Assembly: GCA_945870105.1 (NCBI GenBank)
Contig: CAMBRL010000002.1
Coordinates: 4,246-68,245, forward strand
Length of the DNA stretch: 64,000 bases
Origin: Chitinophaga pinensis
GTDB lineage: Bacteria; Bacteroidota; Bacteroidia; SXHM01
Direction: 5' to 3'
A program made the translations under genes and the position numbers. Each line of letters starts with the position of its first letter. Position 1 is the first letter of the stretch. Below, one piece after another: positions 3,645 to 44,408 of the stretch. The notes under the pieces are model-generated. The model saw only the letters and a list, made by a program, of their open reading frames with translations, was not told where the DNA came from and did no database searches.

Positions 3645-4142
3645 TACAAACAGCAAAATGCTCCATCCAGTTGGGTGGCGACTAAATCTGTTTGGGTGGC
3701 GACCAAATCTGTCTGGAAATGATTAAATCCAGCAAGAACTACCCTCCACCCAATTGGGTGACGGGTAAATCCAGTTGGGTAGAGCACAAATCCAATTGGG
3801 TGGCGACCAAATCTGTTTAGAAATACCCTCCACCCAATTAGAAATGCAGACCATCCAATTAGGTGACGGGTAAATCCAGTTGGGTGGCGGGCAAATCTGT
3901 CGGGAAATGAACAAATCCAGCGAGAAATACCCTCCACCCAATTGGGTGACGGGTAAATCTAATTGGGTGACGGGTAAATCTGTTTGGAAATACCCTCCAC
4001 CCATTTGGAAAAGCTGACAACCCAAACAGAAATGCTGACAACCCATTTGGAAATGCTGACAACCCAATTAGAAAAACACAAAGCCAAACAGAAATGGCCG
4101 CCACCCAAACAGAATTGATGACCACCCAAACGAATGACACCT
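3645..4142. repeat. Minisatellite array 1: ~23 degenerate units of 21 bp, consensus CCAATTGGGTGACGGGTAAAT, with an ~84-bp higher-order pattern
   Basis: Cut by hand from 3667: units are 21 nt, with three 20-nt exceptions. Many units carry the palindrome CCAATTGG or a one-mismatch variant. Three overlapping minus-strand ORFs in the track are artefacts of stop-free repeats. Confidence 0.9.
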
Positions 4143-4204
4143 TAATACACTTAGAAAACCTTTACTACAAACAAACCAAACCATTAACCTAAACAACAAA
4201 CACC

Positions 4205-4903
4205 ATGAAAAAAGTACATTGCAGCAGAGCTTACCGCAAAACAGCAGCCTCTAAATTAAAAACCTTTGCAGACGGTATAGCAGCCGGCTATTACGCCAAC
4301 AATCCACCCTTTACCATTTTGCCCGAAACGCTTGCCGTTTTTCTTGCATTGGTAACTGATTACGATACCAAATTATCTGCTTACGATAATGGCGGTGAAA
4401 CACAGAGAGGTCCTTTTCTGGTTTCAAAAACTGCCTTAATAAATGTATTGGATTTAATAGCAATAGAAACCGATAAGGTAGCCGATGGAAATACTGATTT
4501 AATAATTCTGGCAGGTTTCACGCCCACCAAAATACCGGGCGAATCGGTTAAACCCGGTCAAACAGTGGTTACTGTAAAAAGAGGTATTGCCGGTGAGTTG
4601 ATTGCTACCTGCGAAAAACTGGTAGGGGCCAAACACTACGGTTGCATTATGACCGAGGGTGCTCTCCTGCCAGAGTGGGTTGTTATAGATGCCAACGGCA
4701 GAATAGTGCTGCAAACAAATAACCCCATACCGGGACCTACACCCGGTCCCACACCCACCAGTGTGCAACTTGATTTTACCGACCAGCGCGAAAAACATTT
4801 TCTTAACCTTACCCACGATGTTACCTATTACTTCTATTACTATGCTGTAAACGCCAAAGGTGTTGGTCCGCTGAGTGAAGTGGTGAGTATGGTGTGCTGG
4901 TAG
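4205..4903 (+). CDS. Hypothetical protein with a helical N-terminal region, a Pro-rich linker (PIPGPTPGPTPT) and an FN3-like C-terminal end; no signal peptide
   Basis: 232-aa ORF. The C-terminal YYFYYYAVNAKGVGPLSE resembles the last strands of a fibronectin type III domain. The N-terminus MKKVHCSRAYRKTAASK is not signal-like. Confidence 0.65.
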   Translation: MKKVHCSRAYRKTAASKLKTFADGIAAGYYANNPPFTILPETLAVFLALVTDYDTKLSAYDNGGETQRGPFLVSKTALINVLDLIAIETDKVADGNTDLIILAGFTPTKIPGESVKPGQTVVTVKRGIAGELIATCEKLVGAKHYGCIMTEGALLPEWVVIDANGRIVLQTNNPIPGPTPGPTPTSVQLDFTDQREKHFLNLTHDVTYYFYYYAVNAKGVGPLSEVVSMVCW

Positions 4904-4932
4904 AACAGCTTGAATAACGAATACAGAACAAG

Positions 4933-4976
4933 GAACACCGAATGAAGAAGGTTTATTCCTTCAACATTCGGTGTTC
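4933..4976. repeat. Family F6 hairpin repeat (GAACACCGAATG ... CATTCGGTGTTC)
   Basis: Perfect 12-bp inverted repeat with a 20-nt loop that contains a smaller GAAGG/CCTTC stem. Partial direct copies (AACATTCG) flank it. Confidence 0.7.
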
Positions 4977-4982
4977 AACATT

Positions 4983-5070
4983 CGATATTTCTTCCCTCTC
5001 TTCAGGCATCTACTACCTCAGCCTTACCGATGGCACACAAGTGGTAAGCACAAAGTTTGTGAAGGAGTAA
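4983..5070 (+). pseudogene. Orphan remnant of a T9SS C-terminal sorting domain
   Basis: The frame ending at TAA 5068..5070 reads ..FDISSLSSGIYYLSLTDGTQVVSTKFVKE*, which is the last ~28 aa of a type-A CTD. There is no upstream ORF body. Confidence 0.5.
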
Positions 5071-5133
5071 CACATCACTAACAACTTCATTCAATAATTA
5101 AGACCTTTGTACCCCTACAATTGTTCTTTTATT

Positions 5134-5499
5134 ATGAATTCACACCGTATATTTTCATTGCTGAAAGGCAAATGCCCTAAATGCGAAACAGGAGCTATCT
5201 TTTCCGATAAAGGTAACCTGTTTGTTTTCAGAATGCCTGTAATGCACGACAATTGCCCGCACTGCGGACATAAGTTTGAACGTGAACCGGGTTATTTTCT
5301 CGGGGCAATGTATGTAAGCTATGCGTTAACAGTTGCCGTAGCAGTTGCCGTATTTGTACTATGGGAATTGTTTATGCCCGGACAGTATGATTACCGCGTT
5401 ATTGTACTTATCGTTCTGGCGCAGGTATTACTCTGGTTTGTCAACTTCCGCTTATCGCGTATTATCTGGATGTACATTTTTACCAGTAAAGAAAGTTAG
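5134..5499 (+). CDS. DUF983 family membrane protein
   Basis: CPKCETGAIF...CPHCGHKFEREPGYFLGAMYVSY followed by 2 TM helices. ATG 5134 preferred over the TTG at 5107. Confidence 0.8.
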   Translation: MNSHRIFSLLKGKCPKCETGAIFSDKGNLFVFRMPVMHDNCPHCGHKFEREPGYFLGAMYVSYALTVAVAVAVFVLWELFMPGQYDYRVIVLIVLAQVLLWFVNFRLSRIIWMYIFTSKES

Positions 5500-6215: not shown

Positions 6216-6236
6216 GGTTTTAGGTTATGGTTATAC

Positions 6237-6244
6237 CAAAATTA
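6237..6244 (-). promoter_or_regulatory. -7 box TAATTTTG for CDS 5496..6215
   Basis: TAnnTTTG match 21 nt upstream of the ATG at 6215. Confidence 0.45.
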
Positions 6245-6247
6245 AGT

Positions 6248-6284
6248 AAAAACAAACAACCCCTGCAAATTGCAAGGGTTGTTT
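6248..6284 (-). terminator. Rho-independent terminator of CDS 6310..9216
   Basis: The minus strand reads AAACAACCCTTGCAATTTGCAGGGGTTGTTTGTTTTT, a GC-containing stem followed by a T-run. Confidence 0.7.
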
Positions 6285-6309
6285 AGTGAACAATGTATGG
6301 TGGAAAACC

Positions 6310-9216
6310 TTAGTCTTTTGCAATCATCATCCGTTTGGTAGCTCTTACTTCTTTATTACTTAAGGTATAGAAGTAAACTCCCGCAGGAAGATTGCCTGTA
6401 AAGAATTCAATTTTGTTAAATCCTGCTGATGCCTGCACCTGACGGGTTTCTAAAAGTTTGCCTTCAATAGTAGTAACGGTAAGTACATAATCACCCGGAA
6501 GGTCAGAAACAAAGTTGATAACCGTACTGCTGTTAAACGGATTGGGGATGTTCTGCAACAGACTGAAACCCGGTGTTCCATTTTCTTCAATGCCGTTTGG
6601 TGGCTGAGTAATTACAACCGTAAGCGTACGTGTGCAGTTTGCATCGGTAACAGTAATCGTATACGTTCCTGCTGCTACGTTAAACAAGTCTTCAGTAGTA
6701 GCACCGTTGCTCCACGAAAGGGTAAAGGGCTGCGATGCTCCCGTTACCTCCACATCAATAAATCCGTTGGAGCCGTCAAAGGTTGTTACGTTTTGTGCCT
6801 GAATAGAATCAATTGAAATGGTACAGGTCAATTCAGGGAAACAGTTTCTGAGATAAACAGAGTCACGCTGACCAAAACCTGAGCAGGTTTCAACAATGGC
6901 AGGGAACTCACCCGGCACAGGAGGCACAACCAATTGAACCGACTCTGTTTGTCCGGGAGCTAAATCAATATTAAGCTCATCAAATGTATACACCTGATCT
7001 TCTGTAATCAGGTTGCAGCTATCTGCATAGTTTATAATCTGGAAAGGCGGCACAACAACAGATACAGCTCCAACTCCTATATTAGTTGCCGAAATAATCC
7101 ATGTGCCATTTGGGTCGCCCGGGAAAAGAGAAGTAAGCGGAATGCAAGGCAATGTTCCGCCCGGCAACAAATTAATAATCTGCTGTGAAATAACAATGTG
7201 GTTTCCGGGAAGATATTCGTCATTTACATTGTACGAAGTTCCGTCAGGGAAAATAAACACCAATGGGTCAAGTGCCCAACCGCTGTCGCCTGTTATAATC
7301 GGACAAATTTCCATGCGCGGACGGCAGTATGCAGTAAGCGTATCCCAAACCACAGGTTCAATGTTAGCCTCTTCGGCAATGAATGGTGTAATGAAATACC
7401 AGCCTTCTTCCAGACTGTCGGTAAGGTTGGCACACTGGCGTTGAATGGTGTAAGATGAATCATTCAATCCCGGAAAAACATAGCCTGCATCATTGGCAGC
7501 GCTTGCCTGTTGCTGATTGGTTACCGGACCAAAGTCTGAAGGTGTTACTGCCCATGCTACATTAAATCCGGGGCTTGCCACAAAGCCTTCTGAAATTACC
7601 TCTGCAAGATTACCGCAGCACAATGTGTCTTTAGAAACAGAAGCAATACCTCCTGCTAAACAAAGTGTGAAAGGAAATGAAGAACTCTGGCATCCTATAG
7701 CACTTGTAAATGTTACTGTATAAGGTCCGGCTGTGGTCTGTCCGCCAAGTGTGTTACCTGTTGAGTCAACTACAAGCACTCCGTTGTTATACCATTCCAC
7801 ATCATACAATCCGTTGTTGTTGTTGGTTATTTCCAATGCATCTATGCCCGGATTAAAAGTAATGAACGGCTGAGCAGGGTCATTTACAAATGATACACGG
7901 ATTGAGTCTGCACGGTTTAAACAGAAGTTAGTGGTGTCAGTAATCAGCAGGTTGTAATATCCTGTAGGACCGGGAACACTTACCCAAACTGCTTCGCTGT
8001 CTGAGATGAATGTTTCGCTTTGCGACCACTGATAAGTATAAGGACCTGAACTGGTGGTAAGCAATAATGAATCGCCAAGGCAAACGCTGTCGTTAGGTAA
8101 TGCAATCATTGGCGGTACTGGCGGGTTTGCAAAAACGGTGATGGTATCTTGTGTCTGATAAGTGGTGTCCAGCGCTAAAGCAATGGTATAGGTTCCGAAT
8201 GTTTCGGGTGTTGTGAAGTTGAATGTTCCGGGAGCAGAAACAAAGGTTGGATAGTTTCCAAGATTATCGTCTTGTGATGTTCCGTCCTCATCCCAAAAGT
8301 TAAGACTGAAGGCAGGGTTTTCAAGTACACGGTTTAGGTTACTCCAGGAATTGCTGATGTTGTTGCTTCCTGATGAGGAGGTATAATTCTGTGTTCCGTT
8401 TGTAAACGTGAAATACAAATCAGGGGACCCTTGACAAACTCCGAAAAGACTTATCTCTTCCACATCACCGCACCAGCCCGAACCGGAAGTGGTAACAGTT
8501 ACATCGGTCAGTACATAGTTGTAAACGGTAGTAGTAAGACTTGGGTAATAATCACCGGGTGTGGTGTAGGATTGAACCGGAGGATTTTGCTGTGTTGAAG
8601 TATTTCCATTGTCGAAATCCCAGTCATACTCAGTAACCTGATTAGGTGAGAAATCAAGGTAAGCCTCATACGTAACATCCAGTTCACCACAAGCTGATGG
8701 AGGATTGAAACCGAAATAAGGATTGCCGCCCGGAGCAGGTTCAACAATTAAAAACAAAGAGAAACTTGCAGGGTTGTTAATGGTTCCAATAGGTGTAGTA
8801 ACGTTGGCCACTACCGAAACCACTACGTTGTAGTTTCCGGGAACGGTGGGTGTTCCGCAGATTTTTACGCAACCGCGGCTATCCGCTGTTACAGTGTAAG
8901 CGCAGCCGGGCTGGTCGCAACTGTAGGCAAGTCCCGCAGGCATACCAACGATTTGGGTAACGGTAATTCCGTTCAGTGTTACGGATTGACCGCTTTGCTG
9001 GTCAACAAAATCGCGGGGCATAAAAAAGGTCAGGTTCTGGTCGTAAGGCTGGTTTTGAATGGCATTGGGCAACACAGCCGGACAAAGGGTTGGCGCCACA
9101 GGGTTAATACCTACTCCGCACTGGGTATCAATGATGCAGCCAGGGCATTGGGCGTAGGAAGTTAGAAGTGATAAGTTATACGTTATAAGTGCAAACGCAA
9201 GTAAAAATTTCTTCAT
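6310..9216 (-). CDS. Large T9SS-secreted protein with a PKD-like domain, one SprB-type repeat and a T9SS CTD
   Basis: Trimmed to MKKFLLAFALITYNLSLLTSYAQ (ATG 9216). Contains the PKD motif YDWDFDNGNTSTQQNP..YTTPGDY, the SprB repeat DGSNGFIDVEVTGASQPFTLSWSNGATTEDL..AGTYTITVTDANC, and the CTD IPNPFNSSTVINF...GVYFYTL. Confidence 0.85.
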   Translation of the reverse strand: MKKFLLAFALITYNLSLLTSYAQCPGCIIDTQCGVGINPVAPTLCPAVLPNAIQNQPYDQNLTFFMPRDFVDQQSGQSVTLNGITVTQIVGMPAGLAYSCDQPGCAYTVTADSRGCVKICGTPTVPGNYNVVVSVVANVTTPIGTINNPASFSLFLIVEPAPGGNPYFGFNPPSACGELDVTYEAYLDFSPNQVTEYDWDFDNGNTSTQQNPPVQSYTTPGDYYPSLTTTVYNYVLTDVTVTTSGSGWCGDVEEISLFGVCQGSPDLYFTFTNGTQNYTSSSGSNNISNSWSNLNRVLENPAFSLNFWDEDGTSQDDNLGNYPTFVSAPGTFNFTTPETFGTYTIALALDTTYQTQDTITVFANPPVPPMIALPNDSVCLGDSLLLTTSSGPYTYQWSQSETFISDSEAVWVSVPGPTGYYNLLITDTTNFCLNRADSIRVSFVNDPAQPFITFNPGIDALEITNNNNGLYDVEWYNNGVLVVDSTGNTLGGQTTAGPYTVTFTSAIGCQSSSFPFTLCLAGGIASVSKDTLCCGNLAEVISEGFVASPGFNVAWAVTPSDFGPVTNQQQASAANDAGYVFPGLNDSSYTIQRQCANLTDSLEEGWYFITPFIAEEANIEPVVWDTLTAYCRPRMEICPIITGDSGWALDPLVFIFPDGTSYNVNDEYLPGNHIVISQQIINLLPGGTLPCIPLTSLFPGDPNGTWIISATNIGVGAVSVVVPPFQIINYADSCNLITEDQVYTFDELNIDLAPGQTESVQLVVPPVPGEFPAIVETCSGFGQRDSVYLRNCFPELTCTISIDSIQAQNVTTFDGSNGFIDVEVTGASQPFTLSWSNGATTEDLFNVAAGTYTITVTDANCTRTLTVVITQPPNGIEENGTPGFSLLQNIPNPFNSSTVINFVSDLPGDYVLTVTTIEGKLLETRQVQASAGFNKIEFFTGNLPAGVYFYTLSNKEVRATKRMMIAKD
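9158..9186 (-). repeat. Family F7 repeat (ATAACgTATAACTTATCACTTcTAACTTC) inside signal-peptide codons
   Basis: 27 of 29 nt identical to 12577..12605, which lies in an unrelated gene. Both encode ITYNLSL(L/I)TS. Confidence 0.5.
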
Positions 9217-9288
9217 GATTTTAATAGATTTTAGAACGCGAATATATAAATTTTTGGCATCTTGCGCTGCCTTATGCCTGCAAAACAA

Positions 9289-9870
9289 ATGATAGCCGTA
9301 AAAGACACCCTTGTAAGTGATGAAATATTGTCTAAAAAGTTTGTGTGCGACCTTGGCGCCTGCAAAGGTGCCTGTTGTGTGGAAGGCGAGGGAGGCGCAC
9401 CCATTGACGAGGAAGAAGCACTTATACTTGAAGAGATTTATGAGCAGGTAAAACCCTTCATGAACGAAACGGGCATAAAAACCATTGCCAAAAAAGGCAA
9501 GTGGGTTAAGAACGAAGCCAACGAACTGGAAACTCCTTTGAACTCACGCAACAAACACTGCGCTTACGTGGTGTTTGACGAAAACAAAATAGCCAAGTGC
9601 GCCATTGAAATGGCCAACCGTGCCGGCAAGATTGACTTCAAGAAACCCGTTTCGTGCCACCTCTACCCCATCCGTACTAAGGATATGAAAAGCTACCTTG
9701 CTTTGAACTACGAGAAGTGGAGCGTATGCAAACCCGCCCTGAGTTGTGGCGAAAAACTCAATGTTCCCGTTTACAAATTTCTGAAAGAACCTTTAATACG
9801 CAAGTTTGGAAAGGCGTGGTATAAGGAACTGGAGGCGATTGCTGCGGAGTGGGAGAAAGGGAAAGAATAA
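9289..9870 (+). CDS. DUF3109 family protein
   Basis: KFVCDLGACKGACCVEGEGGAPIDEEE... is the characteristic Cys cluster. ATG 9289 (MIAVKDTLVSDEI) is preferred; ATG 9274 is also possible. Confidence 0.8.
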   Translation: MIAVKDTLVSDEILSKKFVCDLGACKGACCVEGEGGAPIDEEEALILEEIYEQVKPFMNETGIKTIAKKGKWVKNEANELETPLNSRNKHCAYVVFDENKIAKCAIEMANRAGKIDFKKPVSCHLYPIRTKDMKSYLALNYEKWSVCKPALSCGEKLNVPVYKFLKEPLIRKFGKAWYKELEAIAAEWEKGKE

Positions 9871-9915
9871 TATTTTTGATTTACTGCGGTCAGCGACTGC
9901 CGACTGCTATGCGGC

Positions 9916-11106
9916 TTATTCCCGTATAGCCTTCACCCCCGGCAACTCAATGCCTTCCATGTATTCCAGCAGTGCGCCACCGCCTGTTGATACATAGCTA
10001 ACCTTATCGGTAAGGTGAAACTGGTTGACGGCAGCCACCGAGTCGCCACCGCCTACTAAGGAATAAGCGCCTTTGGCTGTTGCTGCTGCTACTGCTAGTG
10101 CCACTTCTTTGGTTCCGCTTTCAAAGCTGCTCATTTCAAAAACGCCCATGGGTCCGTTCCACAAAATGGTTTTAGAGTTTTCAATTACCAAGGCATATTC
10201 CTCTGCCGCCTGCGGACCAATATCCAGGCCCATGAAGCCATCGGGTATTTCAAACGAAAGGCAGTGAACGGTTTTGGCTGCATTGTCAAATTTATCACCG
10301 CAAATCGAATCGCTGGGAAGATAAATCTGTACTCCTTTTTCTTTGGCTGCTTTAAGAATATCTAAAGCCGTTTGCAACTTGTCGTCTTCCACCAACGAAG
10401 AGCCAACCTGTTTGCCCATCGCTTTAAAAAACGTGTAGCTCATGCCTCCACCTATAATAATGTTGTCAACCTTATCCAGCAAATTGGTAATGATGGATAT
10501 TTTGCCCGAAACCTTTGCGCCACCCATAATGGCCGTGAAGGGACGTTCGGCATTTTTTAAAACTTTGTCGATGCTGTTCAGCTCACCACTCATCACATAG
10601 CCAAACATTTTTTCTTCAGGGAAGAAATGCGCAACAATAGTGGTAGAAGCATGGGCGCGGTGTGCCGTGCCGAAGGCATCGTTGATATACACATCGCCCA
10701 GCGAGGCGAGTTGCTTGGCAAAATCCTCCGTTCCTGCCTCTTCCTGTTTATGAAAACGCAGGTTTTCCAGCAAAAGAACTTCACCCGGTATTAAAGCAGC
10801 TGCAGCAGAAGTTGCTTTCTCACCAATGCAATCCTCAGCAAACTTTACCTCCACCGAAAGAAGTTTAGAAAGATGCGCAACAATATGTTTCAGTGAATAT
10901 TTGTTGGTAGGCCCGTCCTTTGGTCTTCCCAAATGCGACATCAGAATAACAGAACCGCCACCGCTAAGCACCTTCTTTATAGTAGGTATGGCAGCACGTA
11001 TGCGGGTATCATCGGTAACAACATGCTCGGCATTCAGCGGCACATTAAAGTCAACGCGTATCAGGGCTTTTTTGCCGCTGAAGTTATAGGTGTCAATGTT
11101 TTTCAT
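9916..11106 (-). CDS. pgk: Phosphoglycerate kinase
   Basis: Full-length 396 aa with [17 protein letters not shown]-like and GGGDS motifs. Confidence 0.97.
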
Positions 11107-11199: not shown

Positions 11200-12386
11200 T
11201 ACTCCACCGCCTTCAACCTCCTACCCACCACAATACAAAGCAAGGTAGCCGCAATTGCCAGGTAACCGGCATACTGATAATTTATCATTTTGCCCGAAGC
11301 TTCTGTCATAACAATCATACCGCCAATCATAGAAGCGCCTGCGGAAGAAAACTGCTGCACAGCTGAATTGATACTCATAAAACTGGCGCGGTGCTGCGGC
11401 TCAACAGCGCTTGTTATCATAGTCATACCCGGAACAGTTCGCCCCGAAATAAAAACAAAAAACAAAACTGAAACCACCAACACAATCCACAACGGAGTGG
11501 TCTGCACATTGGTAACAATAAACAACGGAATAACTGAAAGTAAAGCAAGAATAGTAAACACCTTTGGCTTGCCGTATTTATCTGAAAGCCTTCCAATCCA
11601 GGGCGAGGTAAAGAAGGTAGCAGTGCCGCCCAGCAGGTAAACATACGTCAGTTCCTTTTCGGAAACGCCCATGTTGCTTACCATATACGGACTGATAAAG
11701 GGTATCACCACAAACTGCCCCATCACCATCAGAAACATAAAGAGTAATGCCTTCAGTAAGTTGGGAGTTCGGCCAATGTTGAGCAGAAAATCAAAGATGC
11801 GCTCGTCTTTATTACTCTTACCAATATGAGCGTGCAGGGTAGGAATGTAAAAATAAATGCCCGCTGTAATCACTACACCCGCCAGACCTAATGCATGAAA
11901 AGGCAAATGCCAATCGGCAATAGACGCCAGAAACAAACCCAGCGGAACACCTACTGCCGAAGCAAACGAAAACGAAGCCATCACCACACCCATTGCCCCT
12001 GCCCTTCGCTCAAACGGGAAAGCATCGGCAATGATGGAATAAACCAAGGCATTCATTACACCGCCAAAAGCACCGGTAAGAATGCGGGCAGCCAGCAAAA
12101 ACTCATACGAGTTGGCAAAGCCGCAGGAAAAAGTTCCCATAGTAAAACAGATGTATGAAAAGAGCAACACTTTCTTGCGGTCGAACCTGTCGGCCACAAA
12201 CGCAAACATAAAACCAACAACCCCTGCGCTAAACGTATAAGACGAAACCATCAACGCAAACTGCTGCGGATTCATTTCCAGCAAACGCATCAACTGCGGA
12301 CCCAAAGGCATCACAATCATAAAGTCCACAATGTGCGTGAACTGTATAGCTGCCAGAAGGAAGAGAAGGATTTTTTCTTTGCTCAT
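11199..12386 (-). CDS. MFS transporter
   Basis: 395 aa, about 12 TM helices, DRFDRKKV loop motif after TM2. Confidence 0.9.
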   Translation of the reverse strand: MSKEKILLFLLAAIQFTHIVDFMIVMPLGPQLMRLLEMNPQQFALMVSSYTFSAGVVGFMFAFVADRFDRKKVLLFSYICFTMGTFSCGFANSYEFLLAARILTGAFGGVMNALVYSIIADAFPFERRAGAMGVVMASFSFASAVGVPLGLFLASIADWHLPFHALGLAGVVITAGIYFYIPTLHAHIGKSNKDERIFDFLLNIGRTPNLLKALLFMFLMVMGQFVVIPFISPYMVSNMGVSEKELTYVYLLGGTATFFTSPWIGRLSDKYGKPKVFTILALLSVIPLFIVTNVQTTPLWIVLVVSVLFFVFISGRTVPGMTMITSAVEPQHRASFMSINSAVQQFSSAGASMIGGMIVMTEASGKMINYQYAGYLAIAATLLCIVVGRRLKAVE

Positions 12387-12549: not shown

Positions 12550-13221
12550 ATGAAAAAACTACTCCTCTTTGCATTCATAACTTATAACTTATCACTTATA
12601 ACTTCTTCCACCCACGCACAAAGCTTTGGCGGAGGTTTAATAGCAGGCGCCACTTTTAGTCAGTTGCTCGGCACAGATATTTATGGTTTTCAGAAAGCGG
12701 GTTTTGTTGGCGGTGTGTATGCCAACCGCAAAATCAAAACCAAATCAGCGGTTCAGATTGAAATGGTTTTTGTGCAAAAGGGGCTCAGAAAATTTTACAA
12801 AGACACTATCAGTGGCGGAACACGCTTTGTTAACCGCAATCTTAATTACATAGAAGTTCCGTTAGTATTTAAATCAAAACTGATAGGACGTTTCGATTTT
12901 GAGCTTGGATTATCGGGAGCAGTATTGATAAGCACAAAATTCAGAAACGAAAATGGTGAAGGTGAATTGTATGATTTCAACCAGCAAACTTTCAATCGTT
13001 TTGAGTTTGGCTGTTTGGGCGGCCTTAACTTCCGCATCTCCGATAGTTTTGACCTTAACCTGCGTTACCTCAATTCCGTTCTCCGGGTTCGCAAACACCA
13101 GGCAGGACAAACACAGATGTATGGCGGCCTGCGTCTAAATAATGGTGAGTATAATTCTGTATTGCAAGTGAGCTTGCGCTACAAGTTCAATACTAATAAA
13201 GAAGAGAACAAAGCCGAATGA
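12550..13221 (+). CDS. Outer-membrane beta-barrel (porin-family) protein
   Basis: Signal peptide MKKLLLFAFITYNLSLITSSTHAQ, beta-strand pattern, C-terminal ..VLQVSLRYKF. Confidence 0.75.
   Translation: MKKLLLFAFITYNLSLITSSTHAQSFGGGLIAGATFSQLLGTDIYGFQKAGFVGGVYANRKIKTKSAVQIEMVFVQKGLRKFYKDTISGGTRFVNRNLNYIEVPLVFKSKLIGRFDFELGLSGAVLISTKFRNENGEGELYDFNQQTFNRFEFGCLGGLNFRISDSFDLNLRYLNSVLRVRKHQAGQTQMYGGLRLNNGEYNSVLQVSLRYKFNTNKEENKAE
12577..12605 (+). repeat. Family F7 repeat (ATAACTTATAACTTATCACTTATAACTTC) inside signal-peptide codons
   Basis: See 9158..9186. Confidence 0.5.
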
Positions 13222-16194: not shown

Positions 16195-16230
16195 AACTAT
16201 TAACGGGCGTTTCCCGTCTCATTATTTGCC

Positions 16231-16461
16231 GGCAACCAATGAACGGGGGAAGGTAAAACGCCACTCAGGGACGGCAACCAATGACAGGGGGAAGGCAACG
16301 CACCATGCAGGGAGGGCAACGCATGGCTCGGTGACAGCAACCAATGGCAGGGGGAAGGCAACGCGTCATTCAGGGAGAGCAACGCATGGTTCGGGGACAG
16401 CAACCAATGACTGGGGGAAGGCAACGCATCGCTCGGAAAAGGCAAAAAATGAACAGAAAGG
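16231..16461. repeat. Minisatellite array 2: 11 units of exactly 21 bp (GGCAACCAATGACAGGGGGAA / GGCAACGCAYSNTKCAGGGAG / RGCAACGCATGGYTCGGKGAC) with a 63-bp higher-order repeat
   Basis: Hand-cut units all 21 nt. G-runs recur every 21 nt on the + strand. ORFs open on both strands across it are artefacts. Confidence 0.9.
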
Positions 16462-16469
16462 GGGTAATT

Positions 16470-23703: not shown

Positions 23704-26700
23704 ATGAAAAACCTTTACTTCTCACTAATCACCTTGCTATCCTTTTTAATAGTATTCATTCCGGATGATGCGAATGCTCAATTTTGCAATGCTTTTACAT
23801 CGCAACAAAATGCAACCTGCAATGGCGTATGCAATGGTTCAGGTACAGTAACATTTTTCACTGGCGGTGGTTTTGGCACTCCAACCTATTCATGGAATAC
23901 AAATCCTGTGCAAACAACTGCAACAGCAACTAACTTGTGTGCCGGAACTTATATAGTTACAGTAACAGGTACCAATGGCTGTGTTGATCAGGCAACAATT
24001 ACTATCACTCAACCACAACCTATTAACGCAACTACAAGTCAGGTTAATGTATTGTGCTATGGAGGAACAACTGGCACAGCAACTATTACCGTAAGCGGAA
24101 ACGGGAACTACACTTATTCATGGAATACCAATCCTGTGCAAACTACCCAAACTGCAACAGGACTTACAGCGGGAACTTATACCGTAATTGCAACAAATAC
24201 TAATTCAGGTTGCACGGTTACCAGAACTGTTACCATTACTCAGGGGCCTCAAATAACAGGAAGCATCTCTACAACGCCTTCAGACTGCGGACAAAGCACC
24301 GGAACAGCAACAGCTTCAGCAAGCGGAGGAACCGGTGGTTTTACCTATTCATGGAATACAAATCCGGTTCAGACTACCTCAACAGCTACAGGACTTGCAG
24401 CAGGTGGCTACATCGTTACTGTTACCGATGCAAATGGTTGTACTCAATCAGGTCCAGCAACTATTGAAAATATCGGAGGGCCTGAATTGACACAATCAGT
24501 AACAAATATAAACTGTAGTGGGGGAGATAATGGAACCGCAACCGTTACAGCTACAGGTGGAACAGAACCATACTCCTATTCGTGGAACACTACTCCTGTT
24601 CAAACCACTCAAACTGCTATTGGATTAACAGCAGGAACTTACACCGCAACAGTTACGGACGGAGAAGGATGTTTTGAAACTATTGATGTTACAATTATTG
24701 AAGTAAATTCAATGATTGTAACTACCACTCAGATTAATATCTCCTGCAATGGAGGAGCATCGGGTTCAGCTACGGCTACAGGTGCCGGAGGAACAGCGCC
24801 TTATTACTATTTATGGAATACAGTGCCTTCTCAAAACGGACCAACTGCATCGGGGCTTACAATTGGAAGTTATACGGTTACAGCCGTAGATGCTAACAGT
24901 TGTTCAGCAACTGCAACGGTAACAATTACGCAGGCGGATGTATTTGTAACTACCACCGATCAAACCAACCTAAGTTGCAATGGCGAAAATGATGGAACAG
25001 CAACCGTAAATGTTTTTGGCGGAAATCCTCCTTACCAATTCTCATGGAACAGTAATCCTGTTCAAACTACACAAACCGCAGTTAATCTTGGCGCAGGAAA
25101 TTACACGGTAACAGTAACAGATGTAAGCGGGTGTGTTACAACAGCAGGTGTAACAATTACTCAACCGGCTGCAATTACTTTAAGTGCAAGCGCTACAACT
25201 ACTTCTTGCGGACAAACAGCAGGAACAGCTACTGCAACAGCCAGCGGAGGAACCGGAGTACTCACTTATTCATGGGATACTAATCCTGTGCAGACAACGG
25301 CAACTGCAACAGGGCTTTCAGCGGGTACTTATACTGTAACCGTTACAGACGAGGGCAATTGCTCTGCAACCGCATCTGCAACCGTAACCTCACCGGGCGG
25401 ACCTTCATCTACAGTTACACATACTAACGTTAGTTGTAACGGGGGAAATAATGGAACAGCAACGGTTACAGCAACAGGAGGCTCACAACCTTATACTTAT
25501 TCATGGTCGGGCGGACAAACCACACAAACTGCATTTGGTTTAATTGCAGGAACCTATACAGTTACCGTTACTGATCAGTCAAACTGCACCACACTTTCTA
25601 CTGTAACTATTACAGAGCCACTGCCGCTTTCAATCAGTATTGAAAGTGAAAACGTTCAGTGCAACGGATTGGCTTCCGGCTCAGCAACAGCAATTGTTAC
25701 GGGAGGCGTTTCGGCTTACTCTTATTCGTGGGACACACAACCTGAAGAAACTACCGCTGCAATAAGCGGATTGGATGCAGGCACATACACTGTAACGGTT
25801 GCAGATAATAATGGATGTGAGGCAACAGCATCTGCAAGCATCACTGAACCGGATGAATTAACAGCCGCCACTATTCAAACACATGTATCGTGCTTTGGAG
25901 AAACAAATGGTGCAGCAACTGTAAATCCGGTGGGAGGAACACAACCGTATTCTTATTCATGGAATACTAATCCTGTGCAAACAACTCAAACAGCTATTGC
26001 TTTAACTGCAGGCGGCTATTCGGTTTTGGTTACAGATACCAATGGATGTACTGTTACCAAACAAGTTACTATTACTAAGCCATCGGTTTTAACTACTAAC
26101 TATATAACAACGCCTGAAGATTGCGGTCAAAGCAACGGAAGTATTGCTGCTACGGTTAGCGGAGGAACAGGTGCTTATTCTTATTCATGGAACACTAATC
26201 CTGTTCAAACAACAGCAACGGCAACAGGGCTTGCATCAGCAAGCTATACCTTAACGGTTACGGATGAAAACGGATGCGTTGCAACACTTACCGTAAATCT
26301 TCCTAACGCAGGCGGACTTTTCGCAGAAGCAACCAGCACCAACGTAAGTTGCAATGGAGGTGATAACGGAACGGTAACAGGCAATGCTTCAGGAGGAGCT
26401 CAGCCTTATTCTTATGCATGGGACACAAACCCTGTTGAAACTACACAATCAGTTACAGGCTTATCAGCAGGAACTTATACCGGAACAGTTACGGATGATA
26501 ACGGCTGTGTTTTTACTATAACGGCAACGGTTACTGAACCGGAAGCACTTACCGTAAGCGCTGAATTTGAAAATATTCTGTGCAATGGACAGGCAACTGG
26601 TTCAGCAACTGCAAATGTTGCCGGAGGAACTACTCCTTATGTATATGCATGGGATACTGACCCGGCACAAACCACAACTGCAATTTCAGGGCTTATAGCC

Positions 26701-27969
26701 GGCACCTATACGGTTGAAGTTACAGATGACAATGGATGCGTTGCTTCGGCAACAGTAAATATTACACAACCGGCAACTGCGCTTACCGCAAGTGTTATAA
26801 AAACCAATGTTTCGTGCAACGGAGGAAACAACGGAGCGGCAACTGCCAACCCTGCAGGGGGAACAGGACCTTATACCTATAGCTGGAATACCGTTCCTGC
26901 TCAATCTGCACAAACTGCTTTTGGTTTACCTGCCGGAAGCTACACGGTTGTAATTACCGATGCCAACGGTTGCACCATTTCAAAAAACACAACTATCACC
27001 CAGCCTGCAGCAGTTGAAACAAGTTTAAGTGTTGTTCCTGCTGCCTGCGGTCAACCAAACGGCTCGGCAACAGTTACAGCAAGCGGTGGAGTGGGTAACT
27101 TTATCTATTCATGGAACACCAATCCTGAGCAAACTACTGCTACTGCTTCAGCACTTGAAGCCGGAATTTATACTGTTACTGTTACCGATGGAAACGGATG
27201 CGTTTCAACTGAAACAGCAACCGTAAATAATGAAAATGCTCCGCTTTTAGATGCTACAGCTACTAACGCAAGCTGCTTTGGTGCCGACAACGGTATAGCA
27301 ACAGTAGCGGCAACAGGTGGTTCATCGCCATACTCTTATTCGTGGAACACAAACCCGGCACAAACTATTGCAACTGCTACAGGGCTTGCTCCCGGCACTT
27401 ATGTGGTTACTGTTACTGACGATGGAGGATGCTCATCCTTTGCAACTTTAACCATTACAGAGCCAACCGCTATTACCACTTCTACCAACAGCACAGACCC
27501 AACCTGTGATGTGTGTGCAGACGGAAGTGCAACTGTAACACCTTCAGATGGAACTCCGGGATACACTTATCTTTGGAGTAACGGACAAACAACAGCAACT
27601 GCTTTAGACCTAGCTGAAGGAACGTATTGTGTTACTGTAACGGATGACAATGGTTGCGAAACCAATACCTGTGTTACATTAACTGCTCTTGTAACCGGAG
27701 TTGTAAATGCATCTCTGTCTGATAATTCATTCACCGTTTACCCTAACCCTACTTCAGGATTTGTAACTGTTGAATTGGAAACCACGCACCTTTCAACTAT
27801 TACCTTAACGCTTACAAACATGCTTGGACAAAACATCGTAACCCAGCAAAGCGAAGTAAATGGTTTGTTCAAACAAGTGTATGACTTATCTGCTTTTGCT
27901 GAAGGACTATACTTTATTACCGTGTGTTCAGAAAACGAAACGCTGTTGAGGAAGGTGATTAAGAAGTAG
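23704..27969 (+). CDS. Giant T9SS cargo protein made of 17 SprB-type repeats plus a T9SS CTD
   Basis: Seventeen repeats of the form C.G...G.A(T/S)....GG..PY.YSWNTNPVQTT.TA.GL.AGTYTVTVTD.NGC. C-terminus FTVYPNPTSGFVTVE...GLYFITV. Confidence 0.9.
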   Translation: MKNLYFSLITLLSFLIVFIPDDANAQFCNAFTSQQNATCNGVCNGSGTVTFFTGGGFGTPTYSWNTNPVQTTATATNLCAGTYIVTVTGTNGCVDQATITITQPQPINATTSQVNVLCYGGTTGTATITVSGNGNYTYSWNTNPVQTTQTATGLTAGTYTVIATNTNSGCTVTRTVTITQGPQITGSISTTPSDCGQSTGTATASASGGTGGFTYSWNTNPVQTTSTATGLAAGGYIVTVTDANGCTQSGPATIENIGGPELTQSVTNINCSGGDNGTATVTATGGTEPYSYSWNTTPVQTTQTAIGLTAGTYTATVTDGEGCFETIDVTIIEVNSMIVTTTQINISCNGGASGSATATGAGGTAPYYYLWNTVPSQNGPTASGLTIGSYTVTAVDANSCSATATVTITQADVFVTTTDQTNLSCNGENDGTATVNVFGGNPPYQFSWNSNPVQTTQTAVNLGAGNYTVTVTDVSGCVTTAGVTITQPAAITLSASATTTSCGQTAGTATATASGGTGVLTYSWDTNPVQTTATATGLSAGTYTVTVTDEGNCSATASATVTSPGGPSSTVTHTNVSCNGGNNGTATVTATGGSQPYTYSWSGGQTTQTAFGLIAGTYTVTVTDQSNCTTLSTVTITEPLPLSISIESENVQCNGLASGSATAIVTGGVSAYSYSWDTQPEETTAAISGLDAGTYTVTVADNNGCEATASASITEPDELTAATIQTHVSCFGETNGAATVNPVGGTQPYSYSWNTNPVQTTQTAIALTAGGYSVLVTDTNGCTVTKQVTITKPSVLTTNYITTPEDCGQSNGSIAATVSGGTGAYSYSWNTNPVQTTATATGLASASYTLTVTDENGCVATLTVNLPNAGGLFAEATSTNVSCNGGDNGTVTGNASGGAQPYSYAWDTNPVETTQSVTGLSAGTYTGTVTDDNGCVFTITATVTEPEALTVSAEFENILCNGQATGSATANVAGGTTPYVYAWDTDPAQTTTAISGLIAGTYTVEVTDDNGCVASATVNITQPATALTASVIKTNVSCNGGNNGAATANPAGGTGPYTYSWNTVPAQSAQTAFGLPAGSYTVVITDANGCTISKNTTITQPAAVETSLSVVPAACGQPNGSATVTASGGVGNFIYSWNTNPEQTTATASALEAGIYTVTVTDGNGCVSTETATVNNENAPLLDATATNASCFGADNGIATVAATGGSSPYSYSWNTNPAQTIATATGLAPGTYVVTVTDDGGCSSFATLTITEPTAITTSTNSTDPTCDVCADGSATVTPSDGTPGYTYLWSNGQTTATALDLAEGTYCVTVTDDNGCETNTCVTLTALVTGVVNASLSDNSFTVYPNPTSGFVTVELETTHLSTITLTLTNMLGQNIVTQQSEVNGLFKQVYDLSAFAEGLYFITVCSENETLLRKVIKK

Positions 27970-38416: not shown

Positions 38417-38421
38417 TTCAA

Positions 38422-38796: not shown

Positions 38797-38843
38797 CACA
38801 ATTTTCATTTTCAATTAGGGTTTTTGAACTAATTTAGCCGTCC

Positions 38844-39599
38844 ATGTCCGACAGCATTGTCATCATACCAACATACAACGAAAAAGAAAACATTGATGCG
38901 ATGATTCGCAAAGTGTTTTCATTGGCAAAAGATTTTCATTTGCTGATTGTTGATGACGGCTCACCGGATGGAACAGCAGGAATAGTAAAGTCATTACAAA
39001 AAGAATTTTCTGGAAAATTATTTTTGGAAGAGCGCAGCGGAAAACTTGGTTTAGGAACAGCATACATACACGGTTTCAAATGGGGATTACAACGGCAATA
39101 CCAATACTTTTTTGAAATGGATGCCGACTTCTCTCACAATCCTGAAGATTTACTGAAACTCTACAATGCTTGTGAAAAAGGTGGTGCTGATTTAGCAATC
39201 GGTTCACGCTACATTACGGGAGTTAATGTGGTGAACTGGCCAATGGGTCGGGTGCTGATGTCCTACTACGCATCTGCTTATGTACGTTTTATCACTGGCA
39301 TGAAAATACGTGACACTACTGCCGGTTTTAAATGTTACAAACGCGAAGTGTTGGAAACAATTCCCTTAGATAAAATCAAGTTTTTCGGATACGCCTTTCA
39401 GATAGAAATGAAGTTCACTGCATGGAAATTCGGTTTCAATATTATTGAAGTTCCTATCATTTTCACCGACCGCACACACGGTGAATCCAAGATGAGCAGC
39501 GGCATTTTCAGAGAAGCATTTTTTGGTGTGTTGGAGATAAAATGGAAAAGTTTATTTCGCAGTTACAATAGGATAAAACACAGAACTACAGAAAAGTGA
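38844..39599 (+). CDS. GT2 polyprenol-phosphate mannosyltransferase (Dpm1-like)
   Basis: IVIIPTYNEKENI, LLIVDDGSPDGT, FEMDADFSH. Confidence 0.88.
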   Translation: MSDSIVIIPTYNEKENIDAMIRKVFSLAKDFHLLIVDDGSPDGTAGIVKSLQKEFSGKLFLEERSGKLGLGTAYIHGFKWGLQRQYQYFFEMDADFSHNPEDLLKLYNACEKGGADLAIGSRYITGVNVVNWPMGRVLMSYYASAYVRFITGMKIRDTTAGFKCYKREVLETIPLDKIKFFGYAFQIEMKFTAWKFGFNIIEVPIIFTDRTHGESKMSSGIFREAFFGVLEIKWKSLFRSYNRIKHRTTEK

Positions 39600-41277: not shown

Positions 41278-41283
41278 TTCTCA

Positions 41284-42267: not shown

Positions 42268-42321
42268 GGCTTAAAAGTATTGAATTGAACATTAATGCTG
42301 ATGTTTGCGTATCACTTAATC

Positions 42322-44130
42322 ATGAAAAAACTCTACTACTCCATTCTGCTGCTGTGTTTGAGCATTTCTTCAAGCGCACAAATTATTCCCGAAGCCAACC
42401 TTGTTGACTGGTCAGATGCAGGTTATCCGGGAGAATTCCCTGACCCGACAACCGTTGTCAGCGTTATGGATCATGGCGCTGTTGGTGATGGAGTAGCGGA
42501 TGATAGACCCGCAATTCTTGCAGCCATTGCTGCATTGAGTAGCCAACCCGGTGTAGTTCTTTTTCCTGCGGGCAGCTATAAAATTTCTTCCACCGTAAGC
42601 CTTCCTTCCGGAGTTGTTTTGCGGGGCGAAGGTGTAACAGCTACCTTCATCAAACTAAATATGGGTGGCTCTGCCATCAATGGTTTTCAGACTTCGGGGA
42701 GCATAACCGCCACGGAAGTTCCTGTTGTTTCGGGCAACACAAAAGGTTCAACGCAATTAGTAATTGACGGTGCTTACGAAAACTTTTTTGCAGAAGGTGA
42801 TTACGTTGAACTGCGCCAAACCAACGGAACCTGGGACACCAACCCCGCAACATGGGCAACCTACTCGGTAGGACAAGTTGCAAAAATTACAGTCGTTTCA
42901 GGAACAACACTTACGCTCAACCAACAACTACGCATTGATTACGATGCACTGCTAAATCCGCACGTGCGAAAAATGACTCCAACGCAAAATGTTGGAATTG
43001 AGTGCATGAATATTCAGCGCGTTGATGAACCGGTGAGTGGCGCGGGCTACAACATTTTATTCAGCAATTCGGCCAACTGTTGGGTAAAAGGAATTGAAAG
43101 CAACAAAAGCGTAGGCAGCCATGTGATGATTGAAAACAGCACCAACATTGAGGTGCGCAGCAGTTATTTTCACGATGCGTTTACTTACGATGGCAGCGGA
43201 ACCCGTGGCTACGGTGTTACCATCAACAACCACAGCGGATTGTGCCTGATTGAAAACAACGCCTTCAAACACCTGCGCCACGCCATGATGGTGAAACACG
43301 GGGCAAACGGAAATGTGTTCGGCTACAATTATTCGCTTGACCCTTTTCGCAGCGAAACACCGGCAAATGCAGGCGGTGATATTTCGGTGCACGGTCATTT
43401 TCCCTATGCCAATTTGTTTGAAGGCAACATCATTCAAAACTATATGATTGACCACTACTGGGGGCCTGCCGGACCATACAACACGTTTTTCCGCAACCGC
43501 ACCGAGCTTTACGGAATTATAATGACCAACTCCAACGGCTACGACAGCAACCTGCAGAATTTTGTGGGCAACGATGCACCCAACACCGGCTTGTTCATGG
43601 GCAATTATGTAATTACCGGAACTGGACACATTCAGCACGGAAACAATATTCGCGGAACGGTTACCCCATCGGGAACCGGAACGGTGAATGATGTTTCTTT
43701 CTACCTCAGCTCTGCTCCCGACTTCTGGACTAACTCCGGAAACTGGCCAACAATAGGCTACCCAAATTCAGGAAACACAGGAAGCATTCCCTCAAAAGTT
43801 CGCTACGATGCGGGTGGCGATATCACACTTTGTAACGATGATTTTGTAACCACTGTTGCCGGAAATTCTTCTTCCGAAAAAATTATCATTGCCTTTCCAA
43901 ATCCGTTTTCAGATGGATTATCACTTTCCTATTTCTCTGAAAAAGCGGAAAACATTTTCATTTCGTTGCAAGATGTTTCGGGGAAAAGTGTTTTTCAAAA
44001 AAATGTGAGTGTTGTAAAAGGCGAAAACACTATTCGCGTTTTTGAAAACACTGCATTAAGCAGCGGTATCTATTTTCTGAAACTGCAAACAGGTGAAAAT
44101 ATCCTCAACCTGAAGGTTGCAAAGAGGTAA
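42322..44130 (+). CDS. T9SS-secreted right-handed beta-helix protein (pectate-lyase-3 / glycosidase-like N-terminus)
   Basis: Trimmed to MKKLYYSILLLCLSISSSAQ. VMDHGAVGDGVADDRPAILAAI..VLFPAGSYKISSTV. CTD FPNPFSDGLSLSY..GIYFLKLQ. Confidence 0.8.
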   Translation: MKKLYYSILLLCLSISSSAQIIPEANLVDWSDAGYPGEFPDPTTVVSVMDHGAVGDGVADDRPAILAAIAALSSQPGVVLFPAGSYKISSTVSLPSGVVLRGEGVTATFIKLNMGGSAINGFQTSGSITATEVPVVSGNTKGSTQLVIDGAYENFFAEGDYVELRQTNGTWDTNPATWATYSVGQVAKITVVSGTTLTLNQQLRIDYDALLNPHVRKMTPTQNVGIECMNIQRVDEPVSGAGYNILFSNSANCWVKGIESNKSVGSHVMIENSTNIEVRSSYFHDAFTYDGSGTRGYGVTINNHSGLCLIENNAFKHLRHAMMVKHGANGNVFGYNYSLDPFRSETPANAGGDISVHGHFPYANLFEGNIIQNYMIDHYWGPAGPYNTFFRNRTELYGIIMTNSNGYDSNLQNFVGNDAPNTGLFMGNYVITGTGHIQHGNNIRGTVTPSGTGTVNDVSFYLSSAPDFWTNSGNWPTIGYPNSGNTGSIPSKVRYDAGGDITLCNDDFVTTVAGNSSSEKIIIAFPNPFSDGLSLSYFSEKAENIFISLQDVSGKSVFQKNVSVVKGENTIRVFENTALSSGIYFLKLQTGENILNLKVAKR

Positions 44131-44142
44131 GCCACAATCTAT

Positions 44143-44373
44143 AACTACGAAGCTATAACTTAGCTGAACGAAACCGAAGTTCAGCAAGGAGAAGTTGTGG
44201 CGTAGCTGTGCGAAGCTATAATCAAGTGCACCGAAGAGAGCATCAACAAGAGCGAAACCAAGTTGTAAGTGTGCGAACCTAAACTGTATTAGTGCGAAGA
44301 CAAAACCTAGCCGGGGGAAGACACAATCAAGGCGGGGGAAGCTACGTTCAAGCAGTGCGAAGCCATTTTGTAG
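44143..44373. repeat. Minisatellite array 3: 11 units of exactly 21 bp (NNGTGCGAAGNNNNNNNNYAAG-like)
   Basis: Hand-cut units all 21 nt, with (C/G)GAAG at unit positions 6-10 and YA(A/G) at the end. Starts 13 nt after the stop of CDS 42322..44130. Unit 2 contains an F1-like GCTGAAC..GTTCAGC stem. Confidence 0.85.
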
Positions 44374-44408
44374 AACAAATTTGTTACTTCGCACTTATAA
44401 AGTGCGAG
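44374..44408. repeat. Perfect 12-nt palindrome AACAAATTTGTT followed by an inverted array-3 unit forming a hairpin (TCGCACTT-ATA-AAGTGCGA)
   Basis: Read directly from the sequence. It closes array 3 on the side facing the convergent enoyl-CoA hydratase gene. Confidence 0.6.

Follow-up and report, generated by a model that had tools for sequence, protein, structure and literature searches.

Non-coding tandem arrays of unrelated sequence share an exact 21- or 42-bp period in uncultured freshwater Bacteroidia

Non-coding minisatellites of bacteria are usually viewed as unstable curiosities or as typing markers. Iterons of the R6K/RK2 type measure 17-22 bp, the half-sites recognized by AraC-type regulators lie 21 bp apart, and the repetitive extragenic palindromes and bacterial interspersed mosaic elements (REP/BIME) of enterobacteria are found at gene ends, often convergent ones, in both orientations, and have been linked to mRNA stability and gyrase binding. 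LytTR regulators recognize 9-bp repeats separated by 12 bp, corresponding to a period of 21 bp (PMC2766830), and in sopC of the F plasmid, a 43-bp repeat that contains a 16-bp inverted repeat occurs 12 times (PMC3177203). Heptamer repeats of sequence TAACTGA occur in Beggiatoaceae, Cyanobacteria and a few Bacteroidetes (PMC4679880), and BrickBuilt, a 23-nt minisatellite carried inside a MITE (miniature inverted-repeat transposable element), is present at 19 loci in Porphyromonas gingivalis, its leader, tail and inverted ends being common to them (PMC4596501). Here, three intergenic tandem arrays were considered in a stretch of 64,000 nucleotides from Chitinophaga pinensis (assembly GCA_945870105.1, contig CAMBRL010000002.1, positions 4,246 to 68,245; hereafter, the window), together with loci from related metagenome genomes, designated by L-numbers. 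The three arrays are unrelated in sequence and share a period of 21 bp.

When the entire window was scanned at lags of 5 to 130, only three strongly periodic regions were detected, all at multiples of 21, with a weak lag-114 signal within the open reading frame (ORF) at 23704-27969 being the one further match. These regions correspond to array 1 (3645-4142, + strand; some 23 units of 21 nt), array 2 (16231-16461, + strand; 11 units of 21 nt, belonging to three sub-types that form a 63-bp higher-order repeat, with GGCAAC...GGG.A conserved) and array 3 (44143-44373, + strand; 11 units of 21 nt, conserved in the core (GT)GCGAAG and the terminal AG). Tandem Repeats Finder (TRF) reported periods of 21, 42, 63 and 104/105 at 3665-4075 and 16230-16436, and a single period-21 row, at 44296-44341, for array 3. 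This array is the weakest of the three, only its core GCGAAG and terminal AG being conserved, with a period that is equally exact. In each array, identity at lag 21 was 0.54-0.58, as compared to a background of 0.26-0.29 (standard deviation 0.07-0.09), and cutting in register yielded 22-23, 11 and 11 units for arrays 1, 2 and 3, respectively.

An earlier description of this DNA (hereafter, the sequence-only reading) had placed three arrays with a shared 21-bp base period at these positions, in agreement with both the lag scan and TRF. The higher-order periods it gave for arrays 1 and 2 (~84 and ~63 bp) were recovered as 83/84/104/105 and 63, and the lack of similarity it noted between the arrays was confirmed by blastn-short, which detected none. 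The arrays begin 92, 37 and 13 nt past the preceding stop codon (about 90, 37 and 13 nt had been given) and, as had likewise been described, are rich in GC (0.46, 0.58 and 0.47 in arrays 1, 2 and 3, as compared to 0.41-0.42 in the flanks) and in purines (+ strand fractions of 0.56, 0.69 and 0.63), and are covered by stacked, overlapping and spurious ORFs. The unit length of 21 nt holds nearly throughout; the number of 20-nt units in array 1, earlier given as three, is four.

Across the window and related loci, a period of exactly 21 or 42 bp was found in all 16 arrays examined. Within units, per-position information content showed conservation to fall in unbroken blocks of 6-12 nt, each with a variable stretch after it. 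Insertions and deletions are few: among some 250 units, which differ at ~40% of their positions, array 1 has its four of 20 nt and L021 has a few shifts. Identity at lags 7 and 14 equaled background in all arrays, such that no 7- or 14-nt sub-repeat was seen; assignment to the heptamer repeats (short tandemly repeated repetitive sequences (STRR) or TAACTGA) was rejected for want of a 7-nt period.

A length of 21 nt equals seven codons, some frames across the arrays are open, gene callers place ORFs there, and L012 contains a YadA-type 42-bp coding repeat. These points speak for decayed heptad-coding repeats, an origin offered by the sequence-only reading. At the same time, 21 is the smallest k of common assemblers, such that a k-mer assembly artefact was also considered. 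Both origins are extremely improbable and are refuted as far as the tools used allow. Stop codons occur in all + strand frames of arrays 1-3, and the conserved blocks of 6-12 nt are contiguous, with no 3-nt rhythm or third-position pattern. At the orthologous loci of relatives, where the sequence-only reading had looked to an intact long gene with heptad repeats as the possible source, there is none, the flanking genes instead abutting or overlapping. As for assembly, the units, being ~55% identical, are too different to share 20-mers, and the arrays come back in assemblies of different samples, whether from MEGAHIT, SPAdes or JGI. Since these arrays are present in independent assemblies from other samples (L001-L003, L010, L011), they are not assembly artefacts.

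Periods were next surveyed in 326.6 kb of non-redundant clade DNA; the analysis as a whole covered 64 kb of the source genome, some 1.5% of it, and ~260 kb from relatives. Each unit length from 12 to 49 was considered, with neighboring units having to be at least 80% identical. Clusters were found at unit lengths of 21 bp (17), 42 bp (12), 20 bp (1) and 41 bp (1), with none at 19, 22-40 or 43-49 bp. The sample was chosen in part for carrying the fibronectin type III (FN3)-domain gene described below, such that the count at 21 is biased upward, a bias that does not explain the emptiness elsewhere. With units of 19-49 bp being almost only of 21 or 42 bp across 326 kb of related genomes, the exact period is no coincidence of three loci. 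The coding repeats of the clade have other periods (114, 117, 126/129, 60/120 and 72/27), the exception being the 42-bp YadA-head repeat of L012. Non-coding arrays were encountered at six independent loci. Besides the FN3-gene locus and arrays 2 and 3, these are a 42-bp array in the interval between a DUF-type (domain of unknown function) gene and pgk, another of 42 bp in L012, where it lies between an SGL gene and alaS, and a 21-bp array in L015. At the pgk site, 2.3, 5.3 and 6.9 copies of the 42-bp unit are found in three related species, L005, L004 and L007, respectively. The window contains one unit, a hairpin at 9878-9914 (+ strand) between the convergent genes at 9262-9870 (+ strand) and pgk (9916-11106, - strand). 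The stem of the pgk unit, GCGGTC/GACTGC, includes a G.U pair on the + strand only. Copy number, for which the sequence-only reading had proposed a comparison of strains, varies between both species and strains. In a weak control, arrays with the core GCGAAG lying outside long ORFs in IMG/VR were similarly numerous at each of three periods, with 20 in ~7 cases, 21 in at least 8 among the matches listed and 22 in ~6 cases, with several of the 'non-ORF' arrays of period 21 looking to be coding; the core of array 1 had no matches in viral contigs.

Array 1 is flanked by the gene of a small LuxR/GerE-type helix-turn-helix (HTH) protein of 87 amino acids (aa) at 3290-3553 (+ strand) and by a gene encoding a 232-aa protein at 4205-4903 (+ strand). 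The former shows a weak match to the Pfam GerE family and a PHROG match of the sigma-factor region-4-like type (E 3.7e-10), with orthologues at the corresponding place in L010, L012 and L020. The latter combines an N-terminal long helical hairpin with a C-terminal FN3 domain, and has 51 homologues (P0001-P0051), all metagenomic and from a narrow group of Bacteroidia, in which conserved cysteines are found. No Pfam or PHROG family, signal peptide or type IX secretion system (T9SS) tail was detected in this protein. An AlphaFold2 (AF2) model reached a pLDDT of 88, with structural matches in PDB and BFVD for the FN3 part only; a role for the protein itself as nucleic-acid binder was rejected, given a model of a helical hairpin plus FN3 and structural matches confined to the latter.

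Examination of the DNA upstream of the homologous genes (L010/11, L012-14, L015-18, L019-L025 and L036-37) revealed a 21- or 42-bp array of 10-23 units, most with 16-23, directly upstream in 13 of 13 distinct homologues with readable upstream DNA, spanning 49-98% protein identity. Array 1 is, as such, better read as a 5' element of the gene at 4205-4903 than as a 3' element of the gene before it. This runs counter to the sequence-only reading, in which all arrays lay 3' of genes, as array 1 is positionally conserved 5' of 4205-4903, with a promoter element ahead of the array. The homologues in L024 and L025 are variants with a different N-terminal domain. At these loci (L024 3333-3782; L025 2706-3113), the array, unlike that of the window, is open on the sense strand and ends 6 nt before the start of the FN3 gene; this open frame might be translated as an upstream ORF.

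What is conserved at the FN3-gene locus lies outside the repeats. A non-repeat leader at 3554-3644 (+ strand) contains a hairpin (3580-3596), the -7 box TACATTTG (3603-3610) and the motif CGTTCTTTGAATGTAGAAA (3619-3637). This motif, which occurs once in the window, is kept in L010, L012, L020, L022/23 and L036, and as a variant in L021. A consensus structure of the leader was sought and not obtained. Between array and gene, an A/C-rich leader (4143-4204, + strand) includes TTAACCTAAA, which begins exactly 21 nt ahead of the ATG and lies at an equal distance from it in the window, L010, L012 and L015. TAnnTTTG is the Bacteroidetes -7 box consensus. A perfect TAnnTTTG is found 33-45 nt ahead of the array in four lineages and is absent inside every array and between array and ATG, so that array 1 would be transcribed as a long 5' leader, as its sequence context makes probable. 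Inspection by eye upstream of array 1 yielded nothing convincing in terms of a canonical -33 element or an extracytoplasmic function (ECF)-type promoter.

The repeats themselves have mostly been replaced between lineages. The units or cores read CCAATTGGGTGACGGGTAAAT in the window, ATCGGGAAGTGCGTTGAAAGC plus two sister types in L012, GGAGAAACGGTCTCTCCAGTT in L015, ..AAAACAATATTG in L019, ..TAAAGCTTTAAAG.. in L020, ..TTTAATTAAAG.. in L021, TAAAGCATTATCGA.. in L022, and AAAACAGTTAAG.. and ..CTTAATTAAAG.. in L036. A TTAAAG-like core common to L020, L021, L022 and L036 suggests gradual turnover rather than independent origins. The array is stable over short spans of time. Between the window and L010, the array sequence diverges by 4.6% and the flanking genes by 2.4-3.4%, with no indel, an equal number of units and collinear order at 96% identity, and L022 and L023, which are 98% identical, differ by one 126-bp block in the array. 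Palindromic or inverted-repeat cores are found in most FN3-gene arrays (CCAATTGG, CAATATTG, AAAGCTTT, TTTAATTAAA, TTAATTAA, TAATGCATTA and GGAGA-N7-TCTCC). In array 1, unusually, units lie in both orientations around the palindromic core CCAATTGG, resulting in inverted outer arms (3664-3716 and 4084-4136) and a very strong self-complementarity, with folding z-scores of -8.8 (+ strand) and -18.4 (- strand). The possibility that the array serves as a spacer preserving helical phase was rejected, as distances from the motif to the ATG, modulo 21, were 18, 18, 13, 12, 19, 19, 14 and 16; the distance between the conserved flanking motifs was constant neither modulo 21 nor modulo 10.5.

We tentatively propose that the arrays present short protein-binding cores, spaced two helical turns apart and loaded by a DNA-binding protein. 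As in iterons and operators, the repeats recur at a whole number of helical turns, and a conserved core stands beside a variable spacer. Each recognition core of 6-12 bp, often a perfect palindrome, would be followed by a freely varying spacer and would recur every 21 bp, that is, every two turns of B-DNA, placing all cores on one face of the helix. A dimeric or oligomeric protein could then load cooperatively, as on plasmid iterons, plasmid centromeres and the direct repeats of AraC- and LytTR-type regulators. Since a long array remains in phase only at exactly 21 or 42 bp, such an arrangement would explain both the one period of unrelated sequences and the near-absence of indels. Unequal exchange of one or several units would generate the higher-order repeats and differences in copy number, and would let a core change gradually or give way to another without loss of the inherited period. 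Placed between a conserved promoter and the FN3-protein gene, array 1 would act as a multi-site operator or roadblock controlling that gene, with the regulator encoded just upstream being the likeliest binder; arrays 2 and 3 are young insertions of like build between convergent genes. Of all this, the period, the anatomy, the kept position, the turnover and the recent arrival of arrays 2 and 3 are observed; that protein binds, which protein does so and what the regulatory effect would be are inferred.

Phased cores are the only explanation from established principles for the exact shared period, and the exclusiveness of that period, the core-plus-spacer anatomy, the palindromes, the scarcity of indels and the neighboring regulator genes all fit. 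Moreover, variant units break symmetry on one side only and without compensation, in the manner of degenerate protein sites; base-paired stems would show compensating changes. In L036, the array contains four exact copies of ACAGTTAAG, the only match to the published LytTR consensus among the arrays and one that, at the level of sequence, counts in favor of protein binding.

Several points weigh against this proposal. The case for protein binding has been drawn from sequence, and the regulators encoded upstream of the FN3-gene arrays span four different families, being of the LuxR type in the window, L010, L012 and L020, AraC in L023, LytTR in L015 and an XRE-type HTH protein in L036. Arrays 2 and 3 lack both an adjoining regulator and palindromic cores. 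In 15 of the 16 arrays, the LytTR consensus ([TA][AC][CA]GTTN[AG][TG]) is absent; repeated at 21-bp spacing, it was found in none of arrays 1-3, with no match at all in the first two and one isolated minus-strand match in array 3, and a jackhmmer search with two LytTR proteins detected no such gene in the window, only L015 and L036 containing one. It is also hard to picture how palindromes at some 20 sites would be swapped together with a matching change in the protein, and to our knowledge, there is little precedent for 20 or more operators in tandem other than in plasmid centromeres. Finally, iterons and BrickBuilt tolerate 20-23 bp, such that helical phasing alone does not force exactly 21, and array 1 probably lies inside a transcript, making a role at the RNA level equally compatible with its position.

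The period could also matter without any binder. With 21 bp equaling two helical turns, small bends in phase would yield curved or superhelical DNA, for example absorbing supercoils between convergent genes or shaping a promoter, and in keeping with this, sequence is free while period and approximate length are kept, and several arrays lie between convergent genes. Such a sequence-independent physical element is nonetheless very unlikely. Two dinucleotide geometry models (Bolshoy wedge and Olson step parameters) disagreed with one another and gave no consistent excess of curvature over column-permuted periodic controls, contrary to the DNA bending considered in the sequence-only reading, and both models predicted array 3, the alaS array of L012 and the L024 array to be straight. 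Nor did a search for a common 10.5-bp harmonic of weak and strong base pairs (W/S) in the arrays detect any, and the flanking-motif distances noted above follow no helical register.

The position of array 1 behind a -7 box raises the prospect of an element acting at the RNA level, a reading that we consider unlikely. Array 1 and its counterparts would form a 5' leader of 290-590 nt on the FN3 gene. Arrays 2 and 3 would, like the 42-nt arrays, form 3' tails. All would act as many-copy modules for an RNA-binding factor or as rows of hairpins that stabilize or regulate the mRNA. Sponge RNAs of the CsrB type carry some 20 repeated motifs, and most FN3-gene arrays have 16-23 units. In the same direction point the perfect TAnnTTTG upstream of the array in four lineages, with none within or after it, the start of all arrays other than FN3-gene arrays at 13-40 nt past a stop codon, the 42-nt pgk units, which are hairpins with a G.U pair on the + strand only, and the strong excess structure of array 1, of the L015, L020, L021 and L036 arrays and of the pgk array of L007. 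By contrast, arrays 2 and 3 and those of L012, L019 and L025 have no excess structure, folding z-scores across the arrays ranging from -16 to +3, such that a shared RNA structure was rejected. Symmetry-breaking variants are uncompensated, no Rfam family matches the arrays, a permissive search of the array-1 region having returned nothing credible, and transcription is deduced from promoter position. Such a role would, moreover, offer no reason for 21, as we know of nothing in RNA biology that sets a 21-nt ruler.

Judged by comparison with relatives, arrays 2 and 3 are recent insertions between convergent genes. Array 2 is preceded by a non-repeat insertion head (16195-16230, + strand) in which a terminator-like hairpin can be read at 16203-16217. 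The array is found in identical form in L002 and in part in L003, from another sample. The protein of 412 aa encoded beside it has relatives of 90-96% identity in four uncultured Bacteroidia metagenome-assembled genomes (MAGs; L004-L007), where the 275 bp at 16195-16469 are missing and the 412-aa gene and a convergent cytidylyltransferase gene lie a few bases apart. The flanking genes were found in a lake metagenome, on contigs assembled by MEGAHIT. In an alignment of 4.2 kb, identity to the window was 92.4% for L005, 89.6% for L004 and 85-86% for L006/L007. Given this tree and the absence of array 2 from L004-L007, a single gain after the split from L005 is parsimonious. With its sub-units differing by ~40% despite the youth of the insertion, array 2 probably arrived already diversified; its source was sought and not found.

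Array 3 is followed by a non-repeat insertion tail (44386-44472) with terminator-like hairpins, seen in sequence and folds, at 44386-44409 and 44452-44472, the stem of the first being the array-3 repeat core paired with its complement. The array is absent in L032-L035 and L039-L041, where the genes of a T9SS pectate-lyase-like protein and an enoyl-CoA hydratase overlap by 14 bp, as compared to 357 bp between them in the window. L027-L031, the closest relative for the pectate-lyase-like gene, has ~20 nt past the stop codon in common with the window, after which synteny breaks. There (L027-L031 ~11830-11960, as compared to window position 44131), a tryptophan dioxygenase block replaces the enoyl-CoA hydratase/Kup block at the place of array 3.

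Such gains would also be expected were most arrays neutral by-products of mutation or mobility that is peculiar to the lineage and runs in a 21-bp register, be it slippage, template switching, a recombinase or several minisatellite-bearing MITE families like BrickBuilt, although we consider this unlikely. Arrays 2 and 3 are precise insertions of ~275 and ~357 bp with a hairpin-bearing non-repeat head and/or tail, at sites where, in four to five related species, either a few bases separate the convergent genes or the two overlap by 14 bp. Copies at the pgk site range from 1 to 6.9, one 126-bp block distinguishes L022 from L023, synteny breaks at the array-3 site in L027, and another member of the phylum has a minisatellite MITE (PMC4596501). 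However, comparison of the heads and tails of arrays 1-3 by blastn revealed nothing in common, inverted ends were not seen by eye, and neither the window nor ~326 kb of related DNA yielded a further copy of any array in motif searches and blastn, with ~1.5% of the source genome covered. A search of 1.8 billion proteins with an array ORF returned only unrelated repeat proteins. A dispersed MITE family finds no support in the data examined, in which there were no shared ends and no further copies, with dispersal through the rest of the genome still conceivable. The FN3-gene array, furthermore, persists in all lineages over a span of 49-98% protein identity, which would not be expected of neutral DNA in compact bacterial genomes. 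Nor is an enzyme with a 21-bp ruler visible nearby or known to us. The binding of phased cores by protein, an action of the arrays at the RNA level and an origin as by-product are not mutually exclusive.

Assignment to clustered regularly interspaced short palindromic repeats (CRISPR) was also rejected, as the 21-nt units lie head to tail, as opposed to the identical 23-47-nt repeats of CRISPR, their variable parts are diverged copies rather than unique spacers, and no cas genes are among the annotated neighbors. Other repeats and elements were noted in the course of these searches. In L006 (2601-2790), palindromes of the form TGTAAC-N-GTTACA recur every 41 bp upstream of an 821-aa gene and resemble a row of operator sites. 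A composite hairpin at 63074-63175 of the window, lying between gene ends, comprises four direct copies of CGCAAAG followed by inverted copies, CTTTGCG; a hairpin of this type also directly follows the FN3 gene in L036 (10673-10795) and may be a dispersed REP-like terminator element of the clade. The 7-nt repeat ATAACTT, present four times at 12577-12604 (+ strand) and as its reverse complement at 9159-9190, lies within the signal-peptide coding parts of two genes, whose signal peptides are nearly alike (MKKLLLFAFITYNLSLITSS and MKKFLLAFALITYNLSLLTSYAQ). The sole Rfam match in the window is an ordinary S-adenosylmethionine (SAM) riboswitch (RF00162, 85 bits) at 55514-55616 (- strand), upstream of the methionine synthase gene at 51777-55421 (- strand). 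The contigs k141_47137 and k141_2727568 of one metagenome assembly end at ~38866-39181, where coordinate arithmetic gives an overlap of ~300 bp, which means that the window stems from another, more contiguous assembly.

The sequence-only reading knew of no described class with these properties, and the literature searched gave none, the nearest being the 23-nt BrickBuilt minisatellite (PMC4596501). Neither a lineage-wide exact 21/42-bp register nor a module of array plus FN3 gene was reported in the literature searched, and nothing like clade-wide 21/42-bp arrays of unrelated sequence in uncultured freshwater Bacteroidia appears to have been described. Three features point beyond a curiosity: one period is used lineage-wide by unrelated sequences, a gene-linked array is kept through deep divergence, and two arrays were recently gained. 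Together, these suggest a strong physical constraint, namely helical phasing of many protein sites, or an undescribed molecular ruler. It is conceivable, if not to be expected, that the arrays constitute a new class of cis-element whose function is set by the exact 21-bp (or 21-nt) register and by copy number rather than by sequence, being kept before FN3 genes while the sequence is repeatedly replaced, and seeded at other gene ends by a mechanism or machine that measures 21 bases. The system is readily testable, as the arrays are short, their period and number of copies are open to editing, and the downstream gene offers a read-out. There is a practical side as well. Array-bearing contigs tend to end inside arrays, as L003 does in array 2, and gene callers put spurious genes on them (L015 9448-9924; L036 9688-9924), such that the arrays break short-read assemblies and damage annotation.

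Relative to known systems, the arrays belong with bacterial non-coding minisatellites or arrays of phased sites, with a real chance that something new is hidden among them. They resemble REP/BIME in lying between gene ends and, in the case of array 1, in having units of both orientations, yet in a REP/BIME family, one sequence is dispersed in hundreds of copies and keeps to no fixed register of 21 bp. With the heptamer repeats (cyanobacterial STRR and TAACTGA), they have in common a non-coding nature, a fixed period, a place near gene ends and a restriction to certain lineages, whereas those repeats have a 7-nt period and a defined sequence per family, and the arrays here contain no 7- or 14-nt sub-period. 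Iterons and sopC likewise comprise tandem direct repeats with a conserved, often palindromic core, near-integral helical turns and many sites; such iterons and centromeres lie beside rep or par genes on plasmids, have known binders and measure 19-23 or 43 bp, while here the arrays are chromosomal, have no rep or par genes nearby, are many and unrelated, and are of exactly 21 or 42 bp. LytTR and AraC sites match in their 21-bp center-to-center spacing, made up of a 9-10-bp core and an 11-12-bp spacer, and LytTR and AraC genes adjoin two of the arrays; known sites of this kind are, however, paired and do not occur in runs of 10-23. The greatest likeness is to BrickBuilt, which is from the same phylum, strictly intergenic and made up of 1-23 head-to-tail, imperfect copies of ~20 nt without spacers, with conserved and variable unit positions, a non-repeat head and tail, and a suggested effect on transcription (PMC4596501). 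In the present arrays, no common ends were found, the period is instead 21 or 42, each locus has a sequence of its own, and one of the arrays is linked to a gene family.

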